The position numbers and the translations under genes are program-made. Below, piece after piece: positions 5,834-38,707 of a DNA stretch of 38,707 bases. This stretch comes from a virus (Duplodnaviria > Heunggongvirae > Uroviricota > Caudoviricetes): positions 1 through 38,707 of IMG/VR virus record IMGVR_UViG_2529292997_000008; one strand, written 5' to 3'. The notes beneath the pieces are model-generated. The model did no database searches. It had not been told where the DNA came from and saw nothing but the letters and a program-made list of their open reading frames with translations. The number at the start of each line of letters is the position of its first letter. Position 1 is the first letter of the stretch.

Positions 5834-5867
5834 CGCTTCGCAGCGACACCGGATTTTTAAAGAGCAT
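5834..5867 (-). promoter_or_regulatory. candidate nut-like site (boxA TGCTCTTTAAAAA plus boxB-like hairpin CGCU-GCGA-AGCG) in leftward leader
   Basis: Read on minus strand; boxA 11-12/13 to rrn/lambda boxA consensus, followed 8 nt later by 4-bp stem with GNRA-type loop. Confidence 0.35.
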
Positions 5868-6029
5868 AAGGTAAGTGCCTTTTTGTGCCTTCCGTTATCT
5901 TTTTCCTTGCGTCTTTGCAAGTATGGCCTTACCTTGTCTGCAAGTTTACAAAATGGAATTTTAAGATCAAGGCTTAAAATACACGTTTTGTGACTTGCAT
6001 CAAACTTTTTGAGGTTATAGGGTAGCGAC

Positions 6030-6677
6030 ATGAAAACAAAATGGTATGACTTAGCAAAGCAGCTCATGCGGGCGCAGGGCATGAGCCAGGATTCGCTCGC
6101 GGATCGTATGGGGATAACTAAAGGCGGCCTGTCACACTGGCTGAACGGTCGCCGAGAGCCAAATCTTGAAGATATTGCGCGGATTATGCGCGAGCTTGGT
6201 CGTCGGCAGTTTACTGTTACACATGATGGCATGGTCATTGATGATTCTGTTTCTAATACACTTCAGGCCGTGCCGCCGCGTGATTTAGGTAGTTACCCGG
6301 TTATTGACTGGAAGGACACAGTAAACAATATGGATGACGCAAGGCGTTCAGCATTACGACACGTTACGACTAGCGTTATTTGTTCAGATGACAGTTACTG
6401 GCTGGTTGCCAAAGGTGAATCAATGAACGCGCCGCAGGGGTTGAGCATCCCGGCGGGGACGATGATACTTGTGGACCCGCACGCGCCAGCTATTGACGGC
6501 AAACTGGTTATAGCCCAGCTTGAGGAAGGGCAGATACCGACGTTTAAACAGTTGATTATTGATGGAGGTCAAAGGCTTTTACGTTCGCTCAATCCGCTGT
6601 ATCCGCCAATCCCTATGAATCCAGAATCAAAAATTATAGGCGTGGTGGTTGATGCGAAGATCGTAAACCTGCCATAA
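6030..6677 (+). CDS. CI-type prophage repressor (HTH-XRE N-domain, LexA-like S24 peptidase C-domain)
   Basis: 215 aa; HTH QDSLADRMGITKGGLSHWLNGRR; C-domain with GESM serine motif and downstream Lys-containing segment; GAGG RBS. Confidence 0.85.
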   Translation: MKTKWYDLAKQLMRAQGMSQDSLADRMGITKGGLSHWLNGRREPNLEDIARIMRELGRRQFTVTHDGMVIDDSVSNTLQAVPPRDLGSYPVIDWKDTVNNMDDARRSALRHVTTSVICSDDSYWLVAKGESMNAPQGLSIPAGTMILVDPHAPAIDGKLVIAQLEEGQIPTFKQLIIDGGQRLLRSLNPLYPPIPMNPESKIIGVVVDAKIVNLP

Positions 6678-6684
6678 ACATTAG

Positions 6685-6708
6685 CCGCCGAATGGCGGCT
6701 TTTCTTTG
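6685..6708 (+). terminator. rho-independent terminator after repressor gene
   Basis: GCCGCC-GAAT-GGCGGC hairpin followed by TTTTCTTTG. Confidence 0.7.
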
Positions 6709-6800
6709 CCTGGGAAACACCAAAACGTAAACAGAAAACGTTATTTATTATTTAAATATCAATGGCATATAAAATATTTTAAAAAAGTATACAAAATGGA

Positions 6801-6829
6801 TTGACTCGATGTTTTACGGGGCGTATATT
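6801..6829 (+). promoter_or_regulatory. sigma70-like promoter (PL-analogue) driving rightward early operon
   Basis: TTGACT-17 nt-TATATT; TACAAAATGGA motif immediately upstream (6790-6800). Confidence 0.5.
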
Positions 6830-7082
6830 GCGAGTCAAAGGAAGGGCGCAGGTAACAAAAGCAACTTCCTGGCACTTTAAAAATCAGGCTTAACACCTTG
6901 TCAACCGTGGAGTAACTCCCCGATGGGGGACCGAAAGCGGCACTGATAACAAGGCGCATGGGGTGTTTAAAGCGTTACATCCCCCACGAAACCGCACGCA
7001 AGGCGACGAGTCAGCTTGCTTGGAGTGAGCAAGGTCACGCCGGGAACGGCGATGATTGCGGGATTAGTTGAAAGATGTTAAG

Positions 7083-7177: not shown

Positions 7178-7468
7178 ATGAGCGTTACAATTATATATGG
7201 TAAATGTGATAGCAAAATGAATGCCAGGGAACGCAGAAGGATAAAAAGAGAAAACGAAAGAAAATCATCACCTGCAATCAATAAAACAGACAATGTGGAT
7301 AAAGCTATTCGATTTGCAAACGAGGAAAGATGCAAACCAAATAGCATTAAAGAACGTCGCAAAGGATCAGTAAAATGGTATACGGAAAATGAAAGCGGCA
7401 GCTACTACCACGCAACGCAACCACGCCATTTAGGGGAAAAACCCCTGGATAAAGTCCGCTACCATTAA
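7178..7468 (+). CDS. N-like transcription antiterminator candidate (arginine-rich motif protein)
   Basis: 96 aa, basic; N-proximal ARM NARERRRIKRENERK; first gene after PL-like promoter and nut-like site. Confidence 0.5.
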   Translation: MSVTIIYGKCDSKMNARERRRIKRENERKSSPAINKTDNVDKAIRFANEERCKPNSIKERRKGSVKWYTENESGSYYHATQPRHLGEKPLDKVRYH

Positions 7469-7498
7469 TACAAAATGTAAACATCCGGAGATGACATT

Positions 7499-7621
7499 AT
7501 GGTTATTCAGGCGCTTCAATTCAAACTGGCAGTAGCGGAAATGCTTCACGATGCCGAAATGTGGAGCGCCGCGAATAAAGCCTTATACATAGTGTTAACA
7601 GCACGGGAGATTAAATGGTGA
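7499..7621 (+). CDS. small ORF (40 aa)
   Basis: ATG with GGAG RBS, preceded by conserved 15-mer ATACAAAATGTAAAC cassette; overlaps erf start. Confidence 0.35.
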   Translation: MVIQALQFKLAVAEMLHDAEMWSAANKALYIVLTAREIKW

Positions 7622-10860: not shown

Positions 10861-10959
10861 CCGAGTAATTCCGATCACATAAATATACATTTTGTATTGT
10901 GATTGTATATCCGTTTTGTAAGCCGAAATCAAAAGGTTTACGGTGCGGAGGAAGCAAAA

Positions 10960-11178
10960 ATGGAACGCGAATTGATGCTTTATTGCGTAGAAGGTGGCGT
11001 AGGTCACGATGCCTACGTCGCCGGGAAAGACTATCCAGCCGATGAAGTGCTTTCTAATATGCACTTCAGAGAAAATGAAAGCCAGGTGTCTGTGTGGAAA
11101 CGGTGTATTGATGGTATTGAGGTTGTAAGTATCGAACGGTATTTAGGCACGTTTGATTACGGTGTTATTGAGGCTTAA
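10960..11178 (+). CDS. hypothetical protein
   Basis: Track ORF 10903 trimmed to ATG with GGAGGAAG RBS; preceded by motif-bearing intergenic region. Confidence 0.45.
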   Translation: MERELMLYCVEGGVGHDAYVAGKDYPADEVLSNMHFRENESQVSVWKRCIDGIEVVSIERYLGTFDYGVIEA

Positions 11179-13153: not shown

Positions 13154-13657
13154 ATGGAAAGGGTGACAATTGACAGGTTATTGGCCTGCATTTATGTCGC
13201 CGTTTTCGTGATCATTAACCTTATTGTTAACCACTGCGGCCCGTGGGTAATTCCGATCACCACGGTAGCCGCCGTGTGCGTCAATATGATGATCCGTGAC
13301 TTCCTGTTATATGACGGCGGCCTGAAATGGTCGGCTACAACATGCGCCGCCGCTGGCGCAATCACGGTGCTGATAAACTACGATGCCGGGATGGTGGCGA
13401 TCGCGTCATTCGTCGCGGTTGTTTCCGGTGCGCTTATTTCTGGCGGTGTTTACCGGATTTTACCTGGCGATTTCGATTCAAAACGCTGGCCTGCGAATAT
13501 AGCGTCCGCCATTGGTGATGCGTTAATTTTTCCCACGCTATCGTTTATGGCATTTATGCCGGAAATATCAGCTATGCAATTCATCTCAAAAATGGCGGCT
13601 GTAACGGTGATCACTATCATCATTCGTCGCTATTTTACGTTCGAGGGTAGGAAATGA
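13154..13657 (+). CDS. polytopic membrane protein, possibly YhhQ/VUT-like transporter
   Basis: 167 aa, about 5 hydrophobic helices; loose resemblance to YhhQ from memory only, unverified. Confidence 0.45.
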   Translation: MERVTIDRLLACIYVAVFVIINLIVNHCGPWVIPITTVAAVCVNMMIRDFLLYDGGLKWSATTCAAAGAITVLINYDAGMVAIASFVAVVSGALISGGVYRILPGDFDSKRWPANIASAIGDALIFPTLSFMAFMPEISAMQFISKMAAVTVITIIIRRYFTFEGRK

Positions 13658-14418
13658 GTGGGCTTAGAAATTGGGTGGTGTGGTCGCTGTACGACGGCAG
13701 CGGGTACGCCGTTAAAGATTGGGCCGACGCTGGCTATAAGTGTTATTGTTTCAATTATGACGGCGCTAATCATGGCGATTATGAAGGCGTCAAGATCATT
13801 CATCCTAACATTGAATATGTCAACGTATGGATTGACAGCCATTTCCTGGTAATGTTCTCCCCTGAATTGTCTGTTTATCCAGATCCTGACATTATCCTGG
13901 GCTTTCCTCCGTGCGACGATCTTGCGGTGTCCGGCGCTCGTTGGTTTTCAAGCAAGCGTGAAAAAGATCCTTACTTCCAGCAGAAGGCGGCATACAACGC
14001 AAAACTGGTAGAAACGCTTGCTGACATGTACCACGTCCCGTGGATGGTGGAAAACCCGGTTGGAGCACTGTCAACGTTATGGCGTAAGCCGGATTTCATT
14101 TTTAATCCGTGCGCTTACGGTGGCTACCTGCCGGAAGATGATAAGCATCCAGCTTTCCCGGAATACATCGCCGACCGCGACGCCTACACGAAGAAAACTT
14201 GTATCTGGTGCGGCAACGGATTTAAACAGCCGCTATTTCGGCCTGTACCAATGCCTGATGAGTGGGAAGATAGTAAGCAGCACGCGAAGTTAGGCTGGAA
14301 GTCGAAGCGCACTAAGATGATCCGCTCACTCACGCCGCGAGGATTCGCCCGTGCTGTATTCCTGGCTAATGACCGGGCAATCACGCGGACTACTCTTAAC
14401 CGCGTTTTACCGGATTGA
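13654..14418 (+). CDS. compact C5-cytosine methyltransferase-like protein with PCD variant of motif IV
   Basis: 254 aa; motif I-like LYDGSGYA, motif IV GFPPCDD (PC then D instead of Q), motif VI MVENPVG; ATGA overlap with upstream gene. Confidence 0.55.
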   Translation: MSGLRNWVVWSLYDGSGYAVKDWADAGYKCYCFNYDGANHGDYEGVKIIHPNIEYVNVWIDSHFLVMFSPELSVYPDPDIILGFPPCDDLAVSGARWFSSKREKDPYFQQKAAYNAKLVETLADMYHVPWMVENPVGALSTLWRKPDFIFNPCAYGGYLPEDDKHPAFPEYIADRDAYTKKTCIWCGNGFKQPLFRPVPMPDEWEDSKQHAKLGWKSKRTKMIRSLTPRGFARAVFLANDRAITRTTLNRVLPD

Positions 14419-14440
14419 TGTTTACAAAATGGCGTCATTG

Positions 14441-14456
14441 TGTGATGCGGATCACA
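14441..14456. promoter_or_regulatory. CRP-type palindrome TGTGATGCGGATCACA
   Basis: Perfect TGTGA-N6-TCACA, lying between inverted TACAAAATGG motif copies in the 160-bp intergenic region. Confidence 0.4.
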
Positions 14457-14578
14457 TAATGGCGCTTTATTGTTTGTTCGCATGTATCCGTTTTGTATAC
14501 TTCAAACAAACAAAATGCTCTTTAAAAATCCGGTAACGCTGAAATGCGTAAAAATCACCTGAAAAAGGAGAGAGCATT

Positions 14579-14755
14579 ATGTCTTTTGAGAATTACCAAT
14601 GGCATGACGACTATGAACGGGAAAGTGTCATGCGTGCAATGTGCAGTGTATGCAGCACGAAGAAGGGAGAATGTAACGAGTGCAACGAATGCGTAGATCG
14701 CTTGCTAAGGGCTGGACACGCCGAAAGGCTGAACGAAACAGAGAATCAAGAATAA
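14579..14755 (+). CDS. small Cys-rich protein (58 aa)
   Basis: AAGGAGAGAG RBS; CSVCS and CNECNEC motifs; overlaps ninG start region. Confidence 0.35.
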   Translation: MSFENYQWHDDYERESVMRAMCSVCSTKKGECNECNECVDRLLRAGHAERLNETENQE

Positions 14756-14769
14756 TCGGGGTGGTTTTT

Positions 14770-15375
14770 ATGCAAAACCCTAAGAAACCAATAAGACGCC
14801 GTTGCAAATGCTGCGGCGTTTTTTTTGAGCCTAAATATCACAATCAAACGTGGTGCAGCGATGAATGTCTGGAAGAACTGAAGTTTGACCAGCTATGCCG
14901 CGACCGTGAGAAGGCTATGAAGGCTATGGAGCGGAAGAAACGCCGTGATAGCCAGAGGGAAGAACGCAACCGGAAGCGTAAACAGTTAAATCCGCGTAGT
15001 TATTGGATCAAACAAGTTCAAAATGTATTTAACGCCTATATTCGCGAACGTGACGCGCGCTTGCCGTGTATATCTTGCGGGACTTACTACGGTGAGCAAT
15101 GCGGGTGGGATGCAGGTCATTACAGGACGGTAGCCGCCGCCGGACACCTTCGCTTCAACGAGGATAATTGCCATAAGCAATGTAGGCACTGCAACCAGAC
15201 ACTAGACGGCAGCATCGGAGGGTATCGCCCGGCACTGATTCGAAAAATTGGCCTCGCAAGGGTGGTAGCACTGGAAAACAACAATGATACGCATAAATGG
15301 ACGATCGCAGAATGTAAGGAGCTAATAAACATCTATCAGGCGAAATTGGACGCCTTAAGGAGAAAGGCAGCATGA
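14770..15375 (+). CDS. ninG: NinG/Rap-family recombination protein
   Basis: Track ORF trimmed to MQNPKKPIRRRCKCCG; strong match to lambda NinG core (RSYWIKQ..ERD..LPCISCGT..WDAGHYRT.AAA..LRFNE.N.HKQC..CNQ). Confidence 0.85.
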   Translation: MQNPKKPIRRRCKCCGVFFEPKYHNQTWCSDECLEELKFDQLCRDREKAMKAMERKKRRDSQREERNRKRKQLNPRSYWIKQVQNVFNAYIRERDARLPCISCGTYYGEQCGWDAGHYRTVAAAGHLRFNEDNCHKQCRHCNQTLDGSIGGYRPALIRKIGLARVVALENNNDTHKWTIAECKELINIYQAKLDALRRKAA

Positions 15376-15779
15376 ATGAATATACTTTTAGCCTGCCTTA
15401 CCCGCCATCGAATAACCGCTATTACCGACATTCACGGGGTTTTCACTATATCAGCGAAGTGGGGAAGGAATACCGGGAACAAGTAAAAGACATCATCGAA
15501 TTATTAAATCTAGACATTAACCTGTCTTGCCGACTGGCAATCGCCATTTATGCCGCGCCGCCTGATAACCGGACCAGGGATCTTGATAATATCCCTAAAT
15601 GCCTATTTGACAGCCTTACTTATGCCGGATTTTGGAAAGATGATGGACAAATTGACTCAATAAAAATTGTCCGCTGCCGGAAGGTAAAAGGCGGACGCTT
15701 GTTTATTAAGATCCGCGAACGCGGCGACCTACTACCGGATATTGACGAATACGCGACTAATATGTGGGGTGAGCAATGA
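15372..15779 (+). CDS. rusA: RusA-family Holliday junction resolvase
   Basis: 135 aa; LPYPPSNNRYYRH, RDLDN, GGRL motifs as in E. coli RusA; ATGA overlap. Confidence 0.9.
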   Translation: MNEYTFSLPYPPSNNRYYRHSRGFHYISEVGKEYREQVKDIIELLNLDINLSCRLAIAIYAAPPDNRTRDLDNIPKCLFDSLTYAGFWKDDGQIDSIKIVRCRKVKGGRLFIKIRERGDLLPDIDEYATNMWGEQ

Positions 15780-15958
15780 AAAACGAAGTTAAAGATCTGC
15801 AAATAGATATTCAGCGCGATGAGCATGATTTAGCTACAGTCCGACAAATCCGGGCTTTTCATATGCGCGAATTGCTTGCATTGAAAGAGCTTGAGAAAAA
15901 GTTAGTCCAGTCTATTTCTGATCGTAAACAACTTATTGCTCGTTACGGGGGGAAATAA
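15776..15958 (+). CDS. hypothetical protein
   Basis: 60 aa; overlapping start/stop. Confidence 0.5.
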   Translation: MKNEVKDLQIDIQRDEHDLATVRQIRAFHMRELLALKELEKKLVQSISDRKQLIARYGGK

Positions 15959-16680
15959 TGAATTTAGAATCCATTCTGAAATTCCACTTTCCCAAATCAC
16001 CGCGATTATCAGACGAAAGCCGGGGCACATCCCCGGATGCGCTTAATACGACTGATGCGCTAACCGCTGCAGGTATGGCGCAATCGCGCGTAGAGCTTGG
16101 TTACAGCGCTTTTTTAGGGAAGATGGAACTATCGCAAGCCGAAAAACACAGGGCCGTAGTTTTGCTTACAGAGCGTTTAAGAGCTATGGCAAAAGATTAC
16201 GAATACGTCATGGAGCTGGACGAGGACAAACGCAATGATCTTATTATTCTTGTTGCCGTTTTCGCGTTTCGGGATTACTGCCAGAGTGCCGCGACAGAAA
16301 AAACTTGTATGGATTGCGGCGGATATAAATTTACGTTTGACGACTACGGAGAAAAACACCTTTGCAAAAAATGCAAGGGGCATGGAAAAGTTCGCAATCA
16401 TTGTAAACGATGCAAAGGGCGCGGCGAGATACCGGATAAAGCAGCCAGTGAAGCAGCGGAAATGCCAGTGTTCAAAACGTGCCAGCATTGCGGCGGGCGC
16501 GGGTACTCGCGTTTCCCTGTAGATCTTGTCCGGCGTGCGGTTAATCAGCTTGTATTTCCGGTAAGCCGATCAACATGGTGGAAAAAATACCGGGTTTTCT
16601 ATGAAGACGCCATCGCTGAATTGTTCAAGGAAGAGGCGCGGGCTGATAACGAAATTAAACGAGTTACGCGGGGTGAATGA
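15958..16680 (+). CDS. Cys-rich protein with four CxxCxGxG repeats; possible Q-type late antiterminator
   Basis: 240 aa; CMDCGGYK, CKKCKGHGK, CKRCKGRGE, CQHCGGRGY; sits after ninG-rusA where Q normally lies; function uncertain. Confidence 0.4.
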   Translation: MNLESILKFHFPKSPRLSDESRGTSPDALNTTDALTAAGMAQSRVELGYSAFLGKMELSQAEKHRAVVLLTERLRAMAKDYEYVMELDEDKRNDLIILVAVFAFRDYCQSAATEKTCMDCGGYKFTFDDYGEKHLCKKCKGHGKVRNHCKRCKGRGEIPDKAASEAAEMPVFKTCQHCGGRGYSRFPVDLVRRAVNQLVFPVSRSTWWKKYRVFYEDAIAELFKEEARADNEIKRVTRGE

Positions 16681-16883
16681 TGGATAAACTGGAAATAAAC
16701 GATCAGTTTGCCGTTATCTTGTTCGAAGATAAAACAGGCGGCGCATGGTGTAAGAAAGTCACTGGTGCTGAAGCACGCTTAATATTGGGTATGGCAAGCG
16801 CGTTAAATGATGGCGAATTGCCAGCCGTGCCAATTAAGCCAGTACATATTTACGGACGGAGTAACGACAATGAAAATACTTAA
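16677..16883 (+). CDS. hypothetical protein
   Basis: 68 aa track ORF. Confidence 0.45.
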   Translation: MMDKLEINDQFAVILFEDKTGGAWCKKVTGAEARLILGMASALNDGELPAVPIKPVHIYGRSNDNENT

Positions 16884-17217
16884 CATTGGGTGGCTGTATT
16901 GCGAAAACTGCGACGACGATGGCATGGTCGTAAAAACCGAAAAAGGTTGCGGCCTCATGCTGTATCAAGGTGATAAATTCGTTTGTCCTCGCTGCGGCGG
17001 CGGTGGTGAGATAGAAATTGTTAATGATATTGCTACAGCATATAAGCCATCTCGCATTGCCCTTGATGAAAAAATAAAAATTCATCCTTATTTATTACAG
17101 CAAATTATCGATCACGTATCGGCAGCCGCAATCTATAGCGGTAACAATTATCAGCGAGAAATGAACGTCAAACGTGCGATTGAGCAGTATTTCGAAGGTG
17201 ACGACAATGAAGCCTAA
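16870..17217 (+). CDS. zinc-ribbon protein
   Basis: Track ORF trimmed to ATG after GGAG RBS; CENC..(N)..CPRCGG motif. Confidence 0.5.
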   Translation: MKILNIGWLYCENCDDDGMVVKTEKGCGLMLYQGDKFVCPRCGGGGEIEIVNDIATAYKPSRIALDEKIKIHPYLLQQIIDHVSAAAIYSGNNYQREMNVKRAIEQYFEGDDNEA

Positions 17218-17476
17218 ATTAAAAGAGCATGAATTTAGGGATCTCATAAACGGAATAACCGATAAAGCTAGGATGTACTCAAATGCGCAACAGTTAAGGG
17301 CGGTTATAGTTACGGAATTAATGAAATACATTGAGCCATGCGGACCAGGCGACGAAATGACTATGGATAAGGCCATCAAGCGCCGTTCGGCTGATTGGTC
17401 GGTTAGTAACACTGGATTAACCGGATACATTGAAGGCTATAACGACTGTTTACAGGATCATGGCAATGAAAAGTAA
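17207..17476 (+). CDS. hypothetical protein
   Basis: Trimmed to ATG after GAAGGTGA. Confidence 0.45.
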   Translation: MKPKLKEHEFRDLINGITDKARMYSNAQQLRAVIVTELMKYIEPCGPGDEMTMDKAIKRRSADWSVSNTGLTGYIEGYNDCLQDHGNEK

Positions 17477-17681
17477 CCGCAAGCGCCTTGTAAGGGCATA
17501 CGATAAAGCATTAAAGGCTTTTGATGATCTGCGACACAATAAGCGCCAGCGCCGCAAATGGGCGCGTATGCTTGTTTATGAGTGGCATTATTCTGATGCT
17601 TTCATGGAAAGTGCGCCGCTATTAACACAGGAACAAGCCGACGAAGTAGCTAACGATAACGTTTATTATATGATGTGGTGA
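17460..17681 (+). CDS. hypothetical protein
   Basis: Trimmed track ORF 17430. Confidence 0.4.
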   Translation: MAMKSNRKRLVRAYDKALKAFDDLRHNKRQRRKWARMLVYEWHYSDAFMESAPLLTQEQADEVANDNVYYMMW

Positions 17682-17685
17682 TAAT

Positions 17686-18051
17686 ATGCAAATAATCATT
17701 GATTATCTTTGCCATGCTGCAAATACGCTTTTTGGTTTTTATCAACAACCATTCCTCAAAGAATGGGACGAAATGCTTAATGACATCATTGATAAAGGGT
17801 TAATAGTTGAGGTTGGCGAGCTAACGATAAAATTTAATTACGAAGGCAAAGAATATGATATATGGGTAGGTAACAGATGGTACGCATACGGGCATATTTA
17901 TTCAATTGGCGGCAAATACATTAAACGTAGCCAGGAGTTCAGGCCGCGATTCCGCACAATGCGCCGCCTGCGTGACCTGCATATGAATATATTTGAAAAT
18001 CAGGAAGCGTGTGAACTATTCAAAATCTACGGAGATAAATCATGGAACTAA
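17686..18051 (+). CDS. hypothetical protein
   Basis: 121 aa track ORF. Confidence 0.5.
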   Translation: MQIIIDYLCHAANTLFGFYQQPFLKEWDEMLNDIIDKGLIVEVGELTIKFNYEGKEYDIWVGNRWYAYGHIYSIGGKYIKRSQEFRPRFRTMRRLRDLHMNIFENQEACELFKIYGDKSWN

Positions 18052-18272
18052 AAATCTGGCAGGGTATCGACGTAGTTGATAATGAATTGTCTATGTTCGC
18101 CACTAACGGGAAACGCGTGGTGATCGCTACATGGACGCGCAACCATGATGATATAGCTTTTCGTCGCAAGGCTGCGGAGTGGCTTTTCTCTGATGAAGGC
18201 TACACGATGAATATCTCCCAGCTTGCCAGAATGAAGGATGAAAAGCTGGTTGATAGTTACACAACTGCATAG
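18042..18272 (+). CDS. hypothetical protein
   Basis: 76 aa track ORF. Confidence 0.45.
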   Translation: MELKIWQGIDVVDNELSMFATNGKRVVIATWTRNHDDIAFRRKAAEWLFSDEGYTMNISQLARMKDEKLVDSYTTA

Positions 18273-18282
18273 TGGGGCAAAT

Positions 18283-18516
18283 ATGTGTATCTATGAACAC
18301 AAGCGGGATAAAACCCGCTTTTTTGTTCGTGCTGGCGTGGCTTACCAGTATCACGACTGCGGATATATCGAGGCGCTTGCTTACGATCTGGACTTCGAAC
18401 AAGAAAAAGAATGGTTCGATTTCAAAATTTACCGGAAGCGTAAACCGACGCGCGACGAGCGACACGCTATCCGGGACTTTTTAATCAGCATAGACCGCTG
18501 GGAGACAGAGGAATGA
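18283..18516 (+). CDS. hypothetical protein
   Basis: Trimmed to ATG after GTGGGG. Confidence 0.45.
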   Translation: MCIYEHKRDKTRFFVRAGVAYQYHDCGYIEALAYDLDFEQEKEWFDFKIYRKRKPTRDERHAIRDFLISIDRWETEE

Positions 18517-18800
18517 GAGCGAAGAAAACAGCAGATCAGAAAGCGTTAGTTATCACTACAACTGATGTGTCGTTATTCACGAAGGGTGAAGAAATAGATC
18601 TTAAATTACTTTTCGGCATGTTTGAGCCACACGAAAAGCCGTGGTTCGTGCATGAAGACAAACAGGGAAATATGCGCGTAGTAGTGCCGGACAAAAACAG
18701 CGACATATTTTTTGCTATTCCAGACCCGTTACATGACGGTGAATTGCTGGCGGTATTGTTGATCGCTGATGCTGTTACTTATAAAGGGAAAGAAATATGA
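18513..18800 (+). CDS. hypothetical protein
   Basis: 95 aa; ATGA overlap. Confidence 0.5.
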   Translation: MRAKKTADQKALVITTTDVSLFTKGEEIDLKLLFGMFEPHEKPWFVHEDKQGNMRVVVPDKNSDIFFAIPDPLHDGELLAVLLIADAVTYKGKEI

Positions 18801-19024
18801 AAGTTAAATTCTTGCACGATCACGGCTACCCATCATTAAAACGCGTGGTAGGGGAAACGGTAGACGTTGTTCATTCTGATGATGTGACCTGCGTCATTTT
18901 GGGTAAAGACCTTATCGCTCACGGTGCTGATGATTACTACATTAACCCGGCGTGGTCATATACGTTTAGCCTGGGCGACTTCGTAGGCGATAAGGGGCGC
19001 GGCTTGCAAGTAGTCGAGGGTTAA
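18797..19024 (+). CDS. hypothetical protein
   Basis: 75 aa; ATGA overlap. Confidence 0.5.
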   Translation: MKVKFLHDHGYPSLKRVVGETVDVVHSDDVTCVILGKDLIAHGADDYYINPAWSYTFSLGDFVGDKGRGLQVVEG

Positions 19025-19028
19025 TATC

Positions 19029-19277
19029 ATGGACGTTTACGAAGATTTATACCTTCAAACAAATACCAGCACTTTTTATTTTTTGAAAAACGGCGTCGTA
19101 TATCGCAGCGACAACGGGGTGATAATGAAAGAGTGTTTATTTAAGCGTAAAGACCTACTCGAAGATCTGGTTTTTGCCGGGATATTTCGTAAACGTCCGG
19201 CTAACCTGGAAGAAGAAATGTTGATTGAGGTTATTAAACATGAAAATCAGGGTAAGTTATTTCCGGGCGAAAGATAA
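19029..19277 (+). CDS. hypothetical protein
   Basis: 82 aa track ORF. Confidence 0.5.
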   Translation: MDVYEDLYLQTNTSTFYFLKNGVVYRSDNGVIMKECLFKRKDLLEDLVFAGIFRKRPANLEEEMLIEVIKHENQGKLFPGER

Positions 19278-19491
19278 GGCAACAGGAAAGCGGATGGCGA
19301 TCCTGGTTAATGAAGCTAATTATATGTTTGTGCTTCAGCCGTGGTGCATAGCTGACTATAACGATGATTATCGCCGTCACGGTGCGCGGGGTGCTGTAGG
19401 GATGAAGGGATGGCAACCGCGTGACATGGAAAACTATTGTGAATGGAAATTGATAGCAAAATATACGGTCGATTATAAAGGTGTTTTCTAA
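19240..19491 (+). CDS. hypothetical protein
   Basis: Trimmed track ORF 19225; overlaps preceding gene in another frame. Confidence 0.4.
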   Translation: MKIRVSYFRAKDKATGKRMAILVNEANYMFVLQPWCIADYNDDYRRHGARGAVGMKGWQPRDMENYCEWKLIAKYTVDYKGVF

Positions 19492-19697
19492 TGTACGTCA
19501 GATGCACTGAATCAAAATCATCATGCTTTGAGGTTGGCGGAATATATACCGTAGATCACCTGACTGGTGATGAACTTAACACCCAATACATTAAAGACGA
19601 CCTCGGCGACGCGTGGCGCTATTGGGATTGCTACGCGCGTGGACACGTTACCAGTCAGTTTGGTACGGAACCGATCGCGCGTTTTGTTAAGTGGTGA
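19491..19697 (+). CDS. hypothetical protein
   Basis: 68 aa track ORF. Confidence 0.45.
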   Translation: MYVRCTESKSSCFEVGGIYTVDHLTGDELNTQYIKDDLGDAWRYWDCYARGHVTSQFGTEPIARFVKW

Positions 19698-19716
19698 GGC
19701 GTTGGACAACCATAAA

Positions 19717-19732
19717 TGTGATCTGTATCACA
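19717..19732. promoter_or_regulatory. CRP-type palindrome TGTGATCTGTATCACA
   Basis: Perfect TGTGA-N6-TCACA, flanked by AAA and A, close to the idealised CRP site; intergenic. Confidence 0.45.
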
Positions 19733-19735
19733 ATG

Positions 19736-19776
19736 TATACGAAATGGCATTGTTTCGACAGTGCCATTTTGTTATA
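19736..19776 (+). promoter_or_regulatory. inverted TACAAAATGG-type motif pair enclosing a sigma70-like promoter
   Basis: TATACGAAATGG-16 nt-CCATTTTGTTATA; TTGTTT-17-TATATA promoter inside; same architecture as 36082-36121. Confidence 0.4.
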
Positions 19777-19811
19777 TATAAGCCACGGAAAGACGGAGGG
19801 GAGGCAAGAAG

Positions 19812-19952
19812 ATGAGCGCTAACGCTAAATATCCGGCATGGGTTTTTGAGTTATACGCCCGCTACTTTGAATTGCTGGCACAAGGTGAAGAAGCATTAAG
19901 CATTGACGAGTACGCGGAGTGCTTAGGGTTTAAAGGAGACGAAGAAGCATAA
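19812..19952 (+). CDS. small protein (46 aa)
   Basis: ATG preceded by GGAGGGGAGG; below track cut-off. Confidence 0.35.
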   Translation: MSANAKYPAWVFELYARYFELLAQGEEALSIDEYAECLGFKGDEEA

Positions 19953-19995
19953 AACACGGGGCCGGATGGCCCCATCAAATCAGAAGGGTGTAATC

Positions 19996-36034: not shown

Positions 36035-36081
36035 AACCCACCACGCTAACTTGATTTACTGACCATTCCCTTTAGCTTCCT

Positions 36082-36121
36082 TATACAAAATGGAGTCGTT
36101 GAAGTAAAGCCATTTTGTATA
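36082..36121. promoter_or_regulatory. 40-bp inverted TACAAAATGG motif pair with divergent promoters
   Basis: TATACAAAATGG-16 nt-CCATTTTGTATA; minus-strand TTTACT-17-TATAAG inside; plus-strand TGTATAAAAT extended -10-like element. Confidence 0.5.
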
Positions 36122-36161
36122 AAATAGATACACAGATCACATTTTTGCATGAGGTTAAATC

Positions 36162-38540: not shown

Positions 38541-38568
38541 CACAGAAAACCCCCAGCTAGGCTGGGGG
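38541..38568 (-). terminator. candidate convergent terminator for minus-strand transcription from beyond the window
   Basis: CCCCCAGC-TAG-GCTGGGGG hairpin with T-run on the minus strand only. Confidence 0.4.
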
Positions 38569-38707
38569 TTCCGGAAAGCTTTCAGCTTTAAGCCAGTTAT
38601 TAAAACCCCTTTTGATTTGTTAAAACACCTTGCGGTCTGGCAACTGCAAGTGTCAAACAAGAAATCAAAAGGGGGTCCCAATGGGGAACGAAAAGAGCTT
38701 AGCGCAC

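Follow-up and report, generated by a model that had tools for sequence, protein, structure and literature searches.

Genomic context of two CRP-type palindromes

The subject of this analysis is a 38.7-kb stretch of phage DNA (IMG/VR record IMGVR_UViG_2529292997_000008, positions 1 to 38,707; hereafter the window) and, within it, a recurring promoter-like element that carries a site of the type bound by the host cyclic AMP (cAMP) receptor protein CRP. By megablast the window belongs to the mEp021/mEpimmI group (86-91% identity), whose members mEp021, mEp010, mEp013, mEp044, mEp515, mEp554 and MagusPhagus are temperate, Nus-dependent, non-lambdoid coliphages. Its relatives are phages and prophages of E. 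coli, and prophages akin to it were found in 35 of 5,426 complete E. coli genomes. In a collection of human-faecal coliphages the prevalence of mEpimmI phages was reported to equal that of lambdoid phages. These phages have a CI-like repressor, an N-like antiterminator (Gp17) and three nut sites, with nutL placed in the same study and nutR2 located 3' of the methyltransferase gene (PMC11893012).

Two intergenic regions were of particular interest. One separates the cytosine methyltransferase gene (13654-14418) from the ninF/ninG-rusA-Q block, and the other lies between an open reading frame (ORF) at 19491-19697 and a series of small accessory ORFs, the first of which begins at 19812. A first-pass annotation had reported a perfect TGTGA-N6-TCACA palindrome in each of them (sites 1 and 2), upstream of ninG-rusA-Q and of the mid-accessory block, respectively, and accompanied by promoter-like hexamers and copies of the motif TACAAAATGG. 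All of this was confirmed, for both sites and at the reported positions (Table 1).

Strength of the palindromes as CRP sites

The window holds exactly two perfect matches to TGTGA-N6-TCACA, while 100 dinucleotide shuffles averaged 0.03 and never reached two. To score the sites we built a symmetric log-odds CRP matrix from 54 aligned RegulonDB core sites (Table S4 of Shimada et al. 2011, PMC3105977). The three sites of the first-pass annotation, which included a weaker match upstream of the repressor gene, were the top three of the window, with 16.8 bits for site 2, 16.0 for site 1 and 13.6 for the third, here called the pL site. Among the training sites the median is 8.4 and the highest score 15.9 bits, below both site 1 and site 2. 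The window was also simulated 300 times with a first-order Markov model; the top score of these simulations averaged 12.2 bits, and they had on average 0.077 sites of at least 14 bits, where the window has two. Weaker sites (at least 10 bits) were not enriched (5 observed, 5 expected), and the signal therefore consists of a few very strong sites and does not reflect composition.

The individual sequences gave the same picture. Sites 1 and 2 match the two-fold symmetric core perfectly and the pL site has 9 of 10 core bases, and the 22-mer AAATGTGATCTGTATCACAATG at site 2 agrees with the CRP consensus at 18 of 22 positions. Site 2 is one spacer base apart from the RegulonDB site of the host gene azuC (TGTGATTTGTATCACA), although the latter is at -48.5 and listed as repressing, unlike site 2. 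Given the established affinity of CRP, a near-consensus site in E. coli would be occupied whenever cAMP is present. At the level of sequence the two palindromes have every property of a CRP site, and they would be expected to be occupied by CRP.

A shared cassette geometry at five positions

We then used the 17 CCATTTTGTA-type copies of the dispersed motif (at most one mismatch) as anchors and scanned 30-75 nt upstream of each with the CRP matrix. For 5 of the 17 anchors the best score in this 45-nt range lay exactly 47.5 or 48.5 nt upstream of the -10 hexamer. The five phased sites score 16.8 (site 2), 16.0 (site 1), 13.6 (pL), 8.8 (M1) and 7.1 bits (M4), and we refer to the elements around them as cassettes pL, M1, M2 (site 1), M3 (site 2) and M4. 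Only 0.8% of window positions reach at least 5 bits at two adjacent offsets, and the phasing is therefore far beyond chance; our own conservative binomial estimate is <1e-6, with the proviso that some cassettes are paralogues. The three-site list of the first-pass annotation was thus incomplete, lacking the cassettes with sites at 10864-10879 and 36126-36141.

All five cassettes have a common layout, in which the centre of the CRP-like 16-mer is followed after 25-26 nt (25 nt at sites 1 and 2) by a weak -35 hexamer, a 16-17-nt spacer that ends in CC(A/G)TTTTG, and a -10 hexamer of the form TAnAnn. The -35 hexamers are TTGTTC, TTGTTT, TTGATC, TTGTGA and TTACTT (M4), the first three of which are as weak as expected of activator-dependent promoters, and the -10 hexamers are TATACT, TATATA, TAAACT, TAAGCC and TATAAG. 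If transcription starts 7-8 nt past the predicted -10, the centres of the sites fall at about -60.5 to -61.5, a class I position, with the pL site at about -60.5. Two of the cassettes are followed by nut sites. At M2 the boxA-boxB sequence has 20 identical nt in common with the minus-strand nutL-like sequence (about 5852-5868), and downstream of pL a nutL-like boxA (about 5868-5855) precedes the O-like replication genes 5802-5467 and 5463-4411, which match PHROG replication initiators. M1 lies 5' of an ORF for 75 aa (10951-11178). M4 faces a VasI-like gene (36034-35375) and a DUF7738-like gene (35364-34990; both by Pfam) on the minus strand in the tail region, which is a typical moron arrangement.

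The third site of the first-pass annotation, TGTGACTTGCATCAAA, had been described as a half-match just upstream of the repressor start. It does end 25 nt before the repressor ATG (6030), but it is placed for pL and not for the repressor gene; if the repressor has a promoter there, its -35 would overlap the site.

Table 1. Positions of the cassette features in the window.
Feature	Position	Strand	Details
Upstream motif copy, site 1	14423..14432	+	exact TACAAAATGG; 3' end enters the hairpin stem; motif search
Hairpin, site 1	14431..14466	+	16-bp RNA hairpin, site 1 at tip, then TTTATTGTTTG; terminator-like scan, folding
Site 1 palindrome (M2)	14441..14456		TGTGATGCGGATCACA; perfect match; 16.0 bits
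-35-like hexamer, M2	14474..14479	+	TTGTTC; first base 25 nt past site 1 centre; read from sequence
Box and -10-like hexamer, M2	14488..14501	+	CCGTTTTG (reverse complement of TACAAAACGG) adjoining TATACT (14496-14501)
nutR2-like sequence	14516..14549	+	boxA (TGCTCTTTAAAAA) and boxB hairpin ACGC-TGAAAT-GCGT; about 9 nt 3' of predicted start
Site 2 palindrome (M3)	19717..19732		TGTGATCTGTATCACA; perfect match; 16.8 bits
Hairpin, site 2	19733..19779	+	long hairpin on inverted box pair TACGAAATGG (19738-47) / CCATTTTGTT (19764-73)
pL CRP-like site	5989..6004	-	TTTGATGCAAGTCACA; 13.6 bits; centre 48.5 nt 5' of pL -10
Predicted pL	5943..5970	-	-35 TTGATC (5970-5965); 16-nt spacer ending CCATTTTG; -10 TAAACT (5948-5943)
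M1 cassette	10864..10924	+	degraded CRP-like site AGTAATTCCGATCACA (10864-79), 8.8 bits at offset 47.5
M1, other parts			-35-like TTGTGA (10897-902); CCGTTTTG box (10911-18); -10-like TAAGCC (10919-24)
M4 cassette	36080..36141	-	CRP-like TGTGATCTGTGTATCT (36141-36126), 7.1 bits at offset 48.5
M4, other parts			box TACAAAATGG (36119-36110); -35-like TTACTT (36107-36102); CCATTTTG (36093-36086); -10 TATAAG (36085-36080)

Conservation of the cassettes among relatives

Relatives were taken from IMG/VR around the Q gene (45), the repressor gene (46) and the tape-measure-like gene (51), which gave 18-37 distinct sequences per cassette (pL 18, M1 33, M2 37, M3 27, M4 30). At the fixed offset the median scores of these relatives were 13.6 bits for pL, 10.7 for M1, 14.0 for M2, 12.4 for M3 and 8.3 for M4. 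The offset itself was kept, with a 1-nt indel in two sequences only, and the GTGA/TCAC cores were largely kept as well, being invariant at pL and site 1 and variable in one arm at site 2 and M4.

Site 1 gave the clearest pattern. Its GTGA/TCAC core was unchanged in all 37 relatives (entropy 0.00), whereas the N6 spacer, with an entropy of 0.85 compared to 0.21 elsewhere, was the most variable part of the whole intergenic region. The outer T was a C in 23 of the 37 relatives, and this combination of a variable outer T with two fixed G/C pairs matches the positions that CRP contacts. Further downstream, CTTGTT was kept while the following 5-6 nt varied, and GTATCC(A/G)TTTTGTATACTTCAA was identical across all 37. 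At pL, TTTGA..CAAGTCACA was unchanged in the 18 relatives, and the -35 and -10 were kept while parts of the spacer varied. Judged from these alignments, the retention of the hexamers with a variable 5' part of the spacer at pL and M2 is the look of a promoter footprint.

In the other cassettes conservation was less even. The left half of site 2, (T/C)GTGATCT, was kept in the 27 distinct relatives, and homology among mosaic relatives starts exactly at AAATGTGAT, so that the left half-site is the edge of a conserved block. M1 is degraded in the window (AGTAAT; -10 TAAGCC), while its relatives read [N]GTGATTGCGATCACA or similar (GTGA-N6-TCACA), reach a maximum of 15.2 bits and, in the largest group, have a TAAACT -10. 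At M4 the sequence TGTGATC was unchanged in all 30 relatives. Its right arm is TCTCT in most of them, which keeps both C positions of the second half, whereas TATCT in the window keeps only one. A search of the window found AAATGTGATCT without mismatch only at site 2 and M4.

Looking for more distant relatives, a Q-protein scan of genome contigs found none, and a DNA-pattern scan for the site 1 block gave only six matches, in unrelated bacterial phyla, which we took as chance; the conservation described here therefore rests on relatives that are at least 80% identical. Six unrelated IMG/VR contigs (L076, L093, L096, L106, L121 and L127) have tandem copies of TATGTGATAANNNTCACAC, which form an iteron-like array of CRP-like palindromes 5' of GTCCGTTTTGTCTGTCAAATCGACACGCCG.

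GATC occurs in every cassette of the window (within the CRP-like site at 14449-14452, 19720-19723, 10874-10877 and 36135-36138, and at pL within the -35, 5965-5968), and the phage family encodes an N6-adenine methyltransferase of its own. The tetramer belongs to the CRP consensus and some relatives have lost it, and its presence in the cassettes may mean nothing.

Hairpins at sites 1 and 2

Site 1 is more than a DNA palindrome, being also the apex of a 16-bp hairpin that is annotated as a terminator in mEp021. The hairpin folds at -26.6 kcal/mol (z -6.3) compared to -15.2 kcal/mol for the minus strand, and it is plus-strand specific because several of its pairs are G-U. On the transcribed strand the stable stem is followed by the U-tract TTTATTGTTTG, as in a terminator, although this tail is shorter or interrupted in many relatives (e.g. 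TTTTCGCC) and terminator strength is uncertain. In mEp021 the palindrome (cGTGATGTGGATCACA) has the name TERM_4 or t4, which is listed as predicted only (PMC11893012). Of the 16 pairs of the stem, 15 are essentially invariant and the variable one, 14441-14456, is broken in 23 of 37 relatives with no double changes. There are therefore no compensatory pairs by which covariation could separate a constraint on RNA from one on DNA. Site 1 is probably dual-coded, with a terminator stem and a putative CRP-type site on the same bases.

Site 2 is followed by a hairpin of its own, which is built on an inverted pair of motif copies and folds at -28.1 kcal/mol (z -5.9). Its loop region includes the -35-like TTGTTT (19750-55), and the -10-like TATATA (19773-78) is found at the 3' end of the hairpin. 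By our own reading of the alignment, one relative (L025) has a compensatory change from U-A to C-G in this hairpin. In mEp554 a terminator, T10, is annotated beside a perfect site 2, while mEp021 is without the site 2 cassette. The folds at M1 (z -0.55) and M4 (z -1.8) were no better than those of shuffled sequences, and no extended stem complementarity was found at the M1, M4 or pL sites. The most economical reading of sites 1 and 2 is that both are predicted terminator-plus-promoter junctions. A late promoter with a Q-binding site was also considered for site 2 and is unlikely, since the cassette is absent from mEp021 and the hairpin, instead of following the predicted promoter, precedes or overlaps it.

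A further G+C-rich hairpin, GGGGCCGGATGGCCCC (19956-19975), lies 3' of the first small ORF after site 2. It has no plus-strand T-tract, is terminator-like on the minus strand, and is also present in mEp021, which has no site 2 cassette. Neither site 1 nor site 2 matched an Rfam family when the whole window was scanned. The only match was STnc490, an Hfq-binding sRNA, at full length near the right end of the window (38548-38671, plus strand; 146 bits compared to a gathering score of 56).

The dispersed box

The motif TACAAAATGG, which the first-pass annotation had noted beside both palindromes, proved to be real: the window has 17 matches at one mismatch or less, compared to 3.9 expected, and none of 100 shuffles reached 17. 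Six copies are exact. In the longer form (GT[A/T])TACAAAATGG the box is found at 1815, 2953, 5947, 6790, 7469, 10887, 10911, 14423, 14488, 19738, 19764, 36084 and 36110, the copy in the pL spacer occupying 5947-5956. Its reverse complement, CC(A/G)TTTTGTA, directly adjoins a TAnAnn hexamer at many places and the -10 in the five cassettes. A second copy in the opposite orientation is located just 5' of the -35 at site 2, at M4 and at the presumed early promoter pR, where it could act as a predicted A-rich contact for the alpha subunit of RNA polymerase. The variant TACAAAATGTA is itself palindromic (TACA-N3-TGTA).

A role of the box as a general extension of the -10 was rejected, since at 1815, 2953 and 7469 a start 7 nt past the "-10" would fall beyond the Shine-Dalgarno sequence. 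At the three junctions concerned (1796-1830 and 2930-2965 on the minus strand, 7466-7501 on the plus strand) we observed a near-identical string, TACAAAATG(T/G)..TGTAAAC, then 1-3 nt, GGAG and ..ACAT(T/A)ATG. The box lies about 25 nt before the start codon there and cannot be the promoter of that gene. One possibility is that the string is a unit repeated between cistrons, another that it is a target of a protein or an RNA close to the ribosome-binding site.

The box is probably the target of a phage protein, for which the CI-like repressor is the obvious candidate. Look-ups in the PDB and among distant homologues did not identify a box-binding protein. Distant homologues of the repressor (L175-L177, 38% identity) have three copies of (A/G)GTATACAT in the divergent promoter region beside their own repressor gene, at about 1400-1500. 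The box of the window often opens with GTATAC, and those of L175-L177 read GTATACA. As a lead only, this hints that the repressor lineage might read operators of the GTATAC type.

The early region has several other features. The presumed pR, TTGACT-17-TATATT at 6801-6829, is the best sigma-70 match of this region, and an 8-bp inverted repeat brackets it (TTGACTCG at 6801-6808, CGAGTCAA at 6831-6838). The repressor gene (6030-6677) and pR run in the same direction, and no cro-like ORF was found in the leader of about 340 nt between pR and the N-like gene (7178-7468). Read leftward, the box at pR gives CCATTTTG-TATACT (6786-6799, minus strand), which points towards a bidirectional terminator (6683-6700) past the repressor gene. 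This predicted element could yield a short antisense or non-coding transcript.

Weighing the alternatives

The first-pass annotation had suggested either cAMP-CRP input into phage gene expression or a phage regulator with CRP-like specificity. The CRP-type nature of the sites is favoured by score, background, conservation and fixed geometry, and CRP binding itself stays a prediction. We found no CRP homologue in the window, where tblastn with the E. coli CRP sequence as query gave nothing better than E = 4, and this absence of a CRP-family protein favours host CRP over a phage regulator. A different phage-encoded DNA-binding protein might still read palindromes of the GTGAT-N4-ATCAC type about 60 nt upstream of the promoters, as an activator or a looping partner, the likeness to CRP sites being due to convergence or mimicry. 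In favour of this, the sites and the phage-specific box TACAAAATGG occur together in a constant arrangement, the first base of the left arm is unconstrained next to the conserved core GTGAT...(A/G)TCACA, and about 14 kb of the phage genome lie outside the window. Yet the only clear helix-turn-helix regulator in the window is lambda-CI-like, and operators of the CI type overlap core promoters, whereas pR is without such a palindrome and the pL site is at about -60. In addition, the match to the 22-bp CRP consensus continues into the flanks of site 2 and M4 (AAATGTGATCT), and the persistence of the left half-site alone in many relatives is typical of natural CRP sites. We consider a phage protein of this kind unlikely. 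Two narrower candidates were rejected: operators of the CI-like repressor, since there is no GTGA-N6-TCAC at pR (6801-6829) and the pL site lies outside the core promoter, and FNR sites (TTGAT-N4-ATCAA), since four of the five cassettes have an invariant first G in GTGA and only pL has a TTTGA left half.

The hairpins allow an explanation in terms of RNA only, in which the site 1 palindrome is conserved as the upper stem of t4, which would end the methyltransferase transcript, the hairpin beside site 2 is also a terminator, and the likeness to CRP sites is incidental and without regulatory effect. This would account for the stable, plus-strand-specific hairpin with its T-rich tail from the terminator scan, for the annotations TERM_4 in mEp021 and T10 in mEp554, and for the outer stem of site 1, which CRP does not need and which is as conserved as the inner stem. 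It leaves unexplained the CRP-like sites at pL, M1 and M4 and the site 2 palindrome, none of which is in an extended hairpin, as well as the common distance of all sites from the promoter hexamers. The uncompensated loss of the outermost palindrome pair in most relatives and the short or interrupted T-tract in many of them also speak against it. Moreover, the terminator and CRP readings are compatible, and from what is established about CRP affinity a perfect site would be occupied by CRP anyway. An explanation by RNA only is therefore improbable in our view. Pure chance, meaning two functionless palindromes in AT-rich intergenic DNA, could point to the scores of at least 10 bits being no commoner than in simulations. 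We regard it as exceedingly improbable given the expected numbers of perfect and very strong sites, the conservation of the sites next to variable spacers, and the fixed offset in five cassettes.

Several observations nevertheless weigh against functional CRP sites. Site 1 lies inside a very stable, conserved plus-strand hairpin, which alone could explain the conservation of the palindrome. The right arm of site 2 reads ATCACA in only about half of the relatives, with CYCGCA in its place in the rest, and the M4 site and the M1 site of the window reach the median of known CRP sites at best. The five cassettes are not five independent inventions, since M3 and M4 are evidently paralogues and TCACATAA is common to M1 and M2. 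The start sites were predicted from hexamers only, a generic promoter scan of the window did not list the cassette promoters, and the offset to the -10 is 1-2 bp shorter than at lac P1. Finally, the matrix was derived from the first quarter only of one supplementary table (PMC3105977, Table S4). Taking these points together with the evidence above, we judge it reasonably probable that the cassettes are functional CRP-dependent promoters. We regard CRP binding as more certain than its regulatory consequence.

Discussion

In the mechanism that we propose, sites 1 and 2 would be high-affinity sites for host cAMP-CRP at a class I position (about -60.5 to -61.5) upstream of sub-consensus sigma-70 promoters, and the five cassettes would start transcription units of the mEpimmI phage. 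These units would be pL with nutL and the replication genes, a unit at about 10.9 kb, the nutR2-ninF-ninG-rusA-Q unit (site 1), the accessory genes (site 2) and the minus-strand moron. At high cAMP, CRP bound 25-26 nt 5' of a weak -35 would recruit RNA polymerase via the C-terminal domain of the alpha subunit, and the five units would be coupled to the carbon status of the host. At site 1, upstream transcription would stop at t4, and a new CRP-dependent, N-modifiable transcript would begin before nutR2. The arrangement as a whole suggests that several transcription units may be tied to host carbon status.

A more elaborate version, which we put forward tentatively, is a cassette with two inputs, in which host cAMP-CRP at about -61.5 and a phage protein on the 10-13-bp box GT[A/T]TACAAAATGG around the -35 and -10, maybe the CI-like repressor at 13 or more dispersed sites, would jointly gate replication (pL), the Q operon with a terminator, promoter and nut unit of its own, accessory genes and the prophage moron. 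We know of no lambdoid phage with joint gating by immunity and carbon status.

The closest known counterpart of the cassettes is lac P1, a class I promoter with CRP at -61.5 and 25 nt between the site centre and the -35 TTTACA. Shared with lac P1 are a two-fold symmetric TGTGA-N6-TCACA, 25 nt to a weak -35, a 16-17-nt spacer and a recognisable -10, as well as an A/T-rich stretch between the CRP site and the -35, where the alpha C-terminal domain would sit. Unlike lac P1, the phage sites are far nearer to the consensus and have the extra CC(A/G)TTTTG box at the -10, and their starts and CRP dependence are predicted. Direct control of a phage promoter by host CRP has been described in coliphage T1, where cAMP-CRP inhibits the pir promoter and connects sugar availability with the development of the phage (Laganenka et al. 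2019, PMC6737242). Our cassettes would resemble this case in the direct action of host CRP on phage promoters. In T1 a single regulator gene is inhibited, whereas the position of the sites described here predicts activation, at five units including pL, and the phage families are unrelated.

The arrangement also invites comparison with lambda, in which pL is followed by nutL and pR by nutR, and terminators of the nin region lie upstream of Q. The window has the same order of promoter and then boxA/boxB, terminators before ninG-rusA-Q and an N-like antiterminator (Gp17). It differs from lambda in having a terminator, a promoter-like cassette and a nut site together before the Q operon, and in having no cro-like ORF after pR. 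To our knowledge lambda has neither a third nut site nor a CRP site at pL. It has been clear since the 1970s that lambda lysogeny depends on cAMP, although no CRP site is known to have been mapped on this phage.

Within the mEpimmI group, the loci of sites 1 and 2 have counterparts of essentially the same sequence in TERM_4/t4 of mEp021 (MH706966) and T10 of mEp554 (PP180005), respectively; site 1 lies within TERM_4, 5' of nutR2, and T10 lies beside site 2. These records and the family paper (PMC11893012) give a terminator only and mention no CRP site, promoter or repeated cassette; CRP is nowhere named in that paper, and our literature search found no report of CRP binding for mEpimmI phages. 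The elements resemble class I CRP-dependent promoters, and with host CRP already known to act on phage promoters, they would not be new in kind. What would be new for this family are the predicted CRP-type sites as such and their recurrence at five putative units that include pL and the Q operon, together with a promoter-like cassette before nutR2 and the overlap of t4 with a probable regulatory site.

If the proposed mechanism is true, mEpimmI phages read host cAMP at several points, among them the early leftward promoter, the promoter before Q and the moron of the tail region. This would provide a direct route from gut sugar availability to replication, the timing of late genes and the accessory functions of the prophage. 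The third nut site of the family would be explained as well, with nutR2 serving a separate promoter, and what is annotated as terminator t4 probably includes a regulatory site too.

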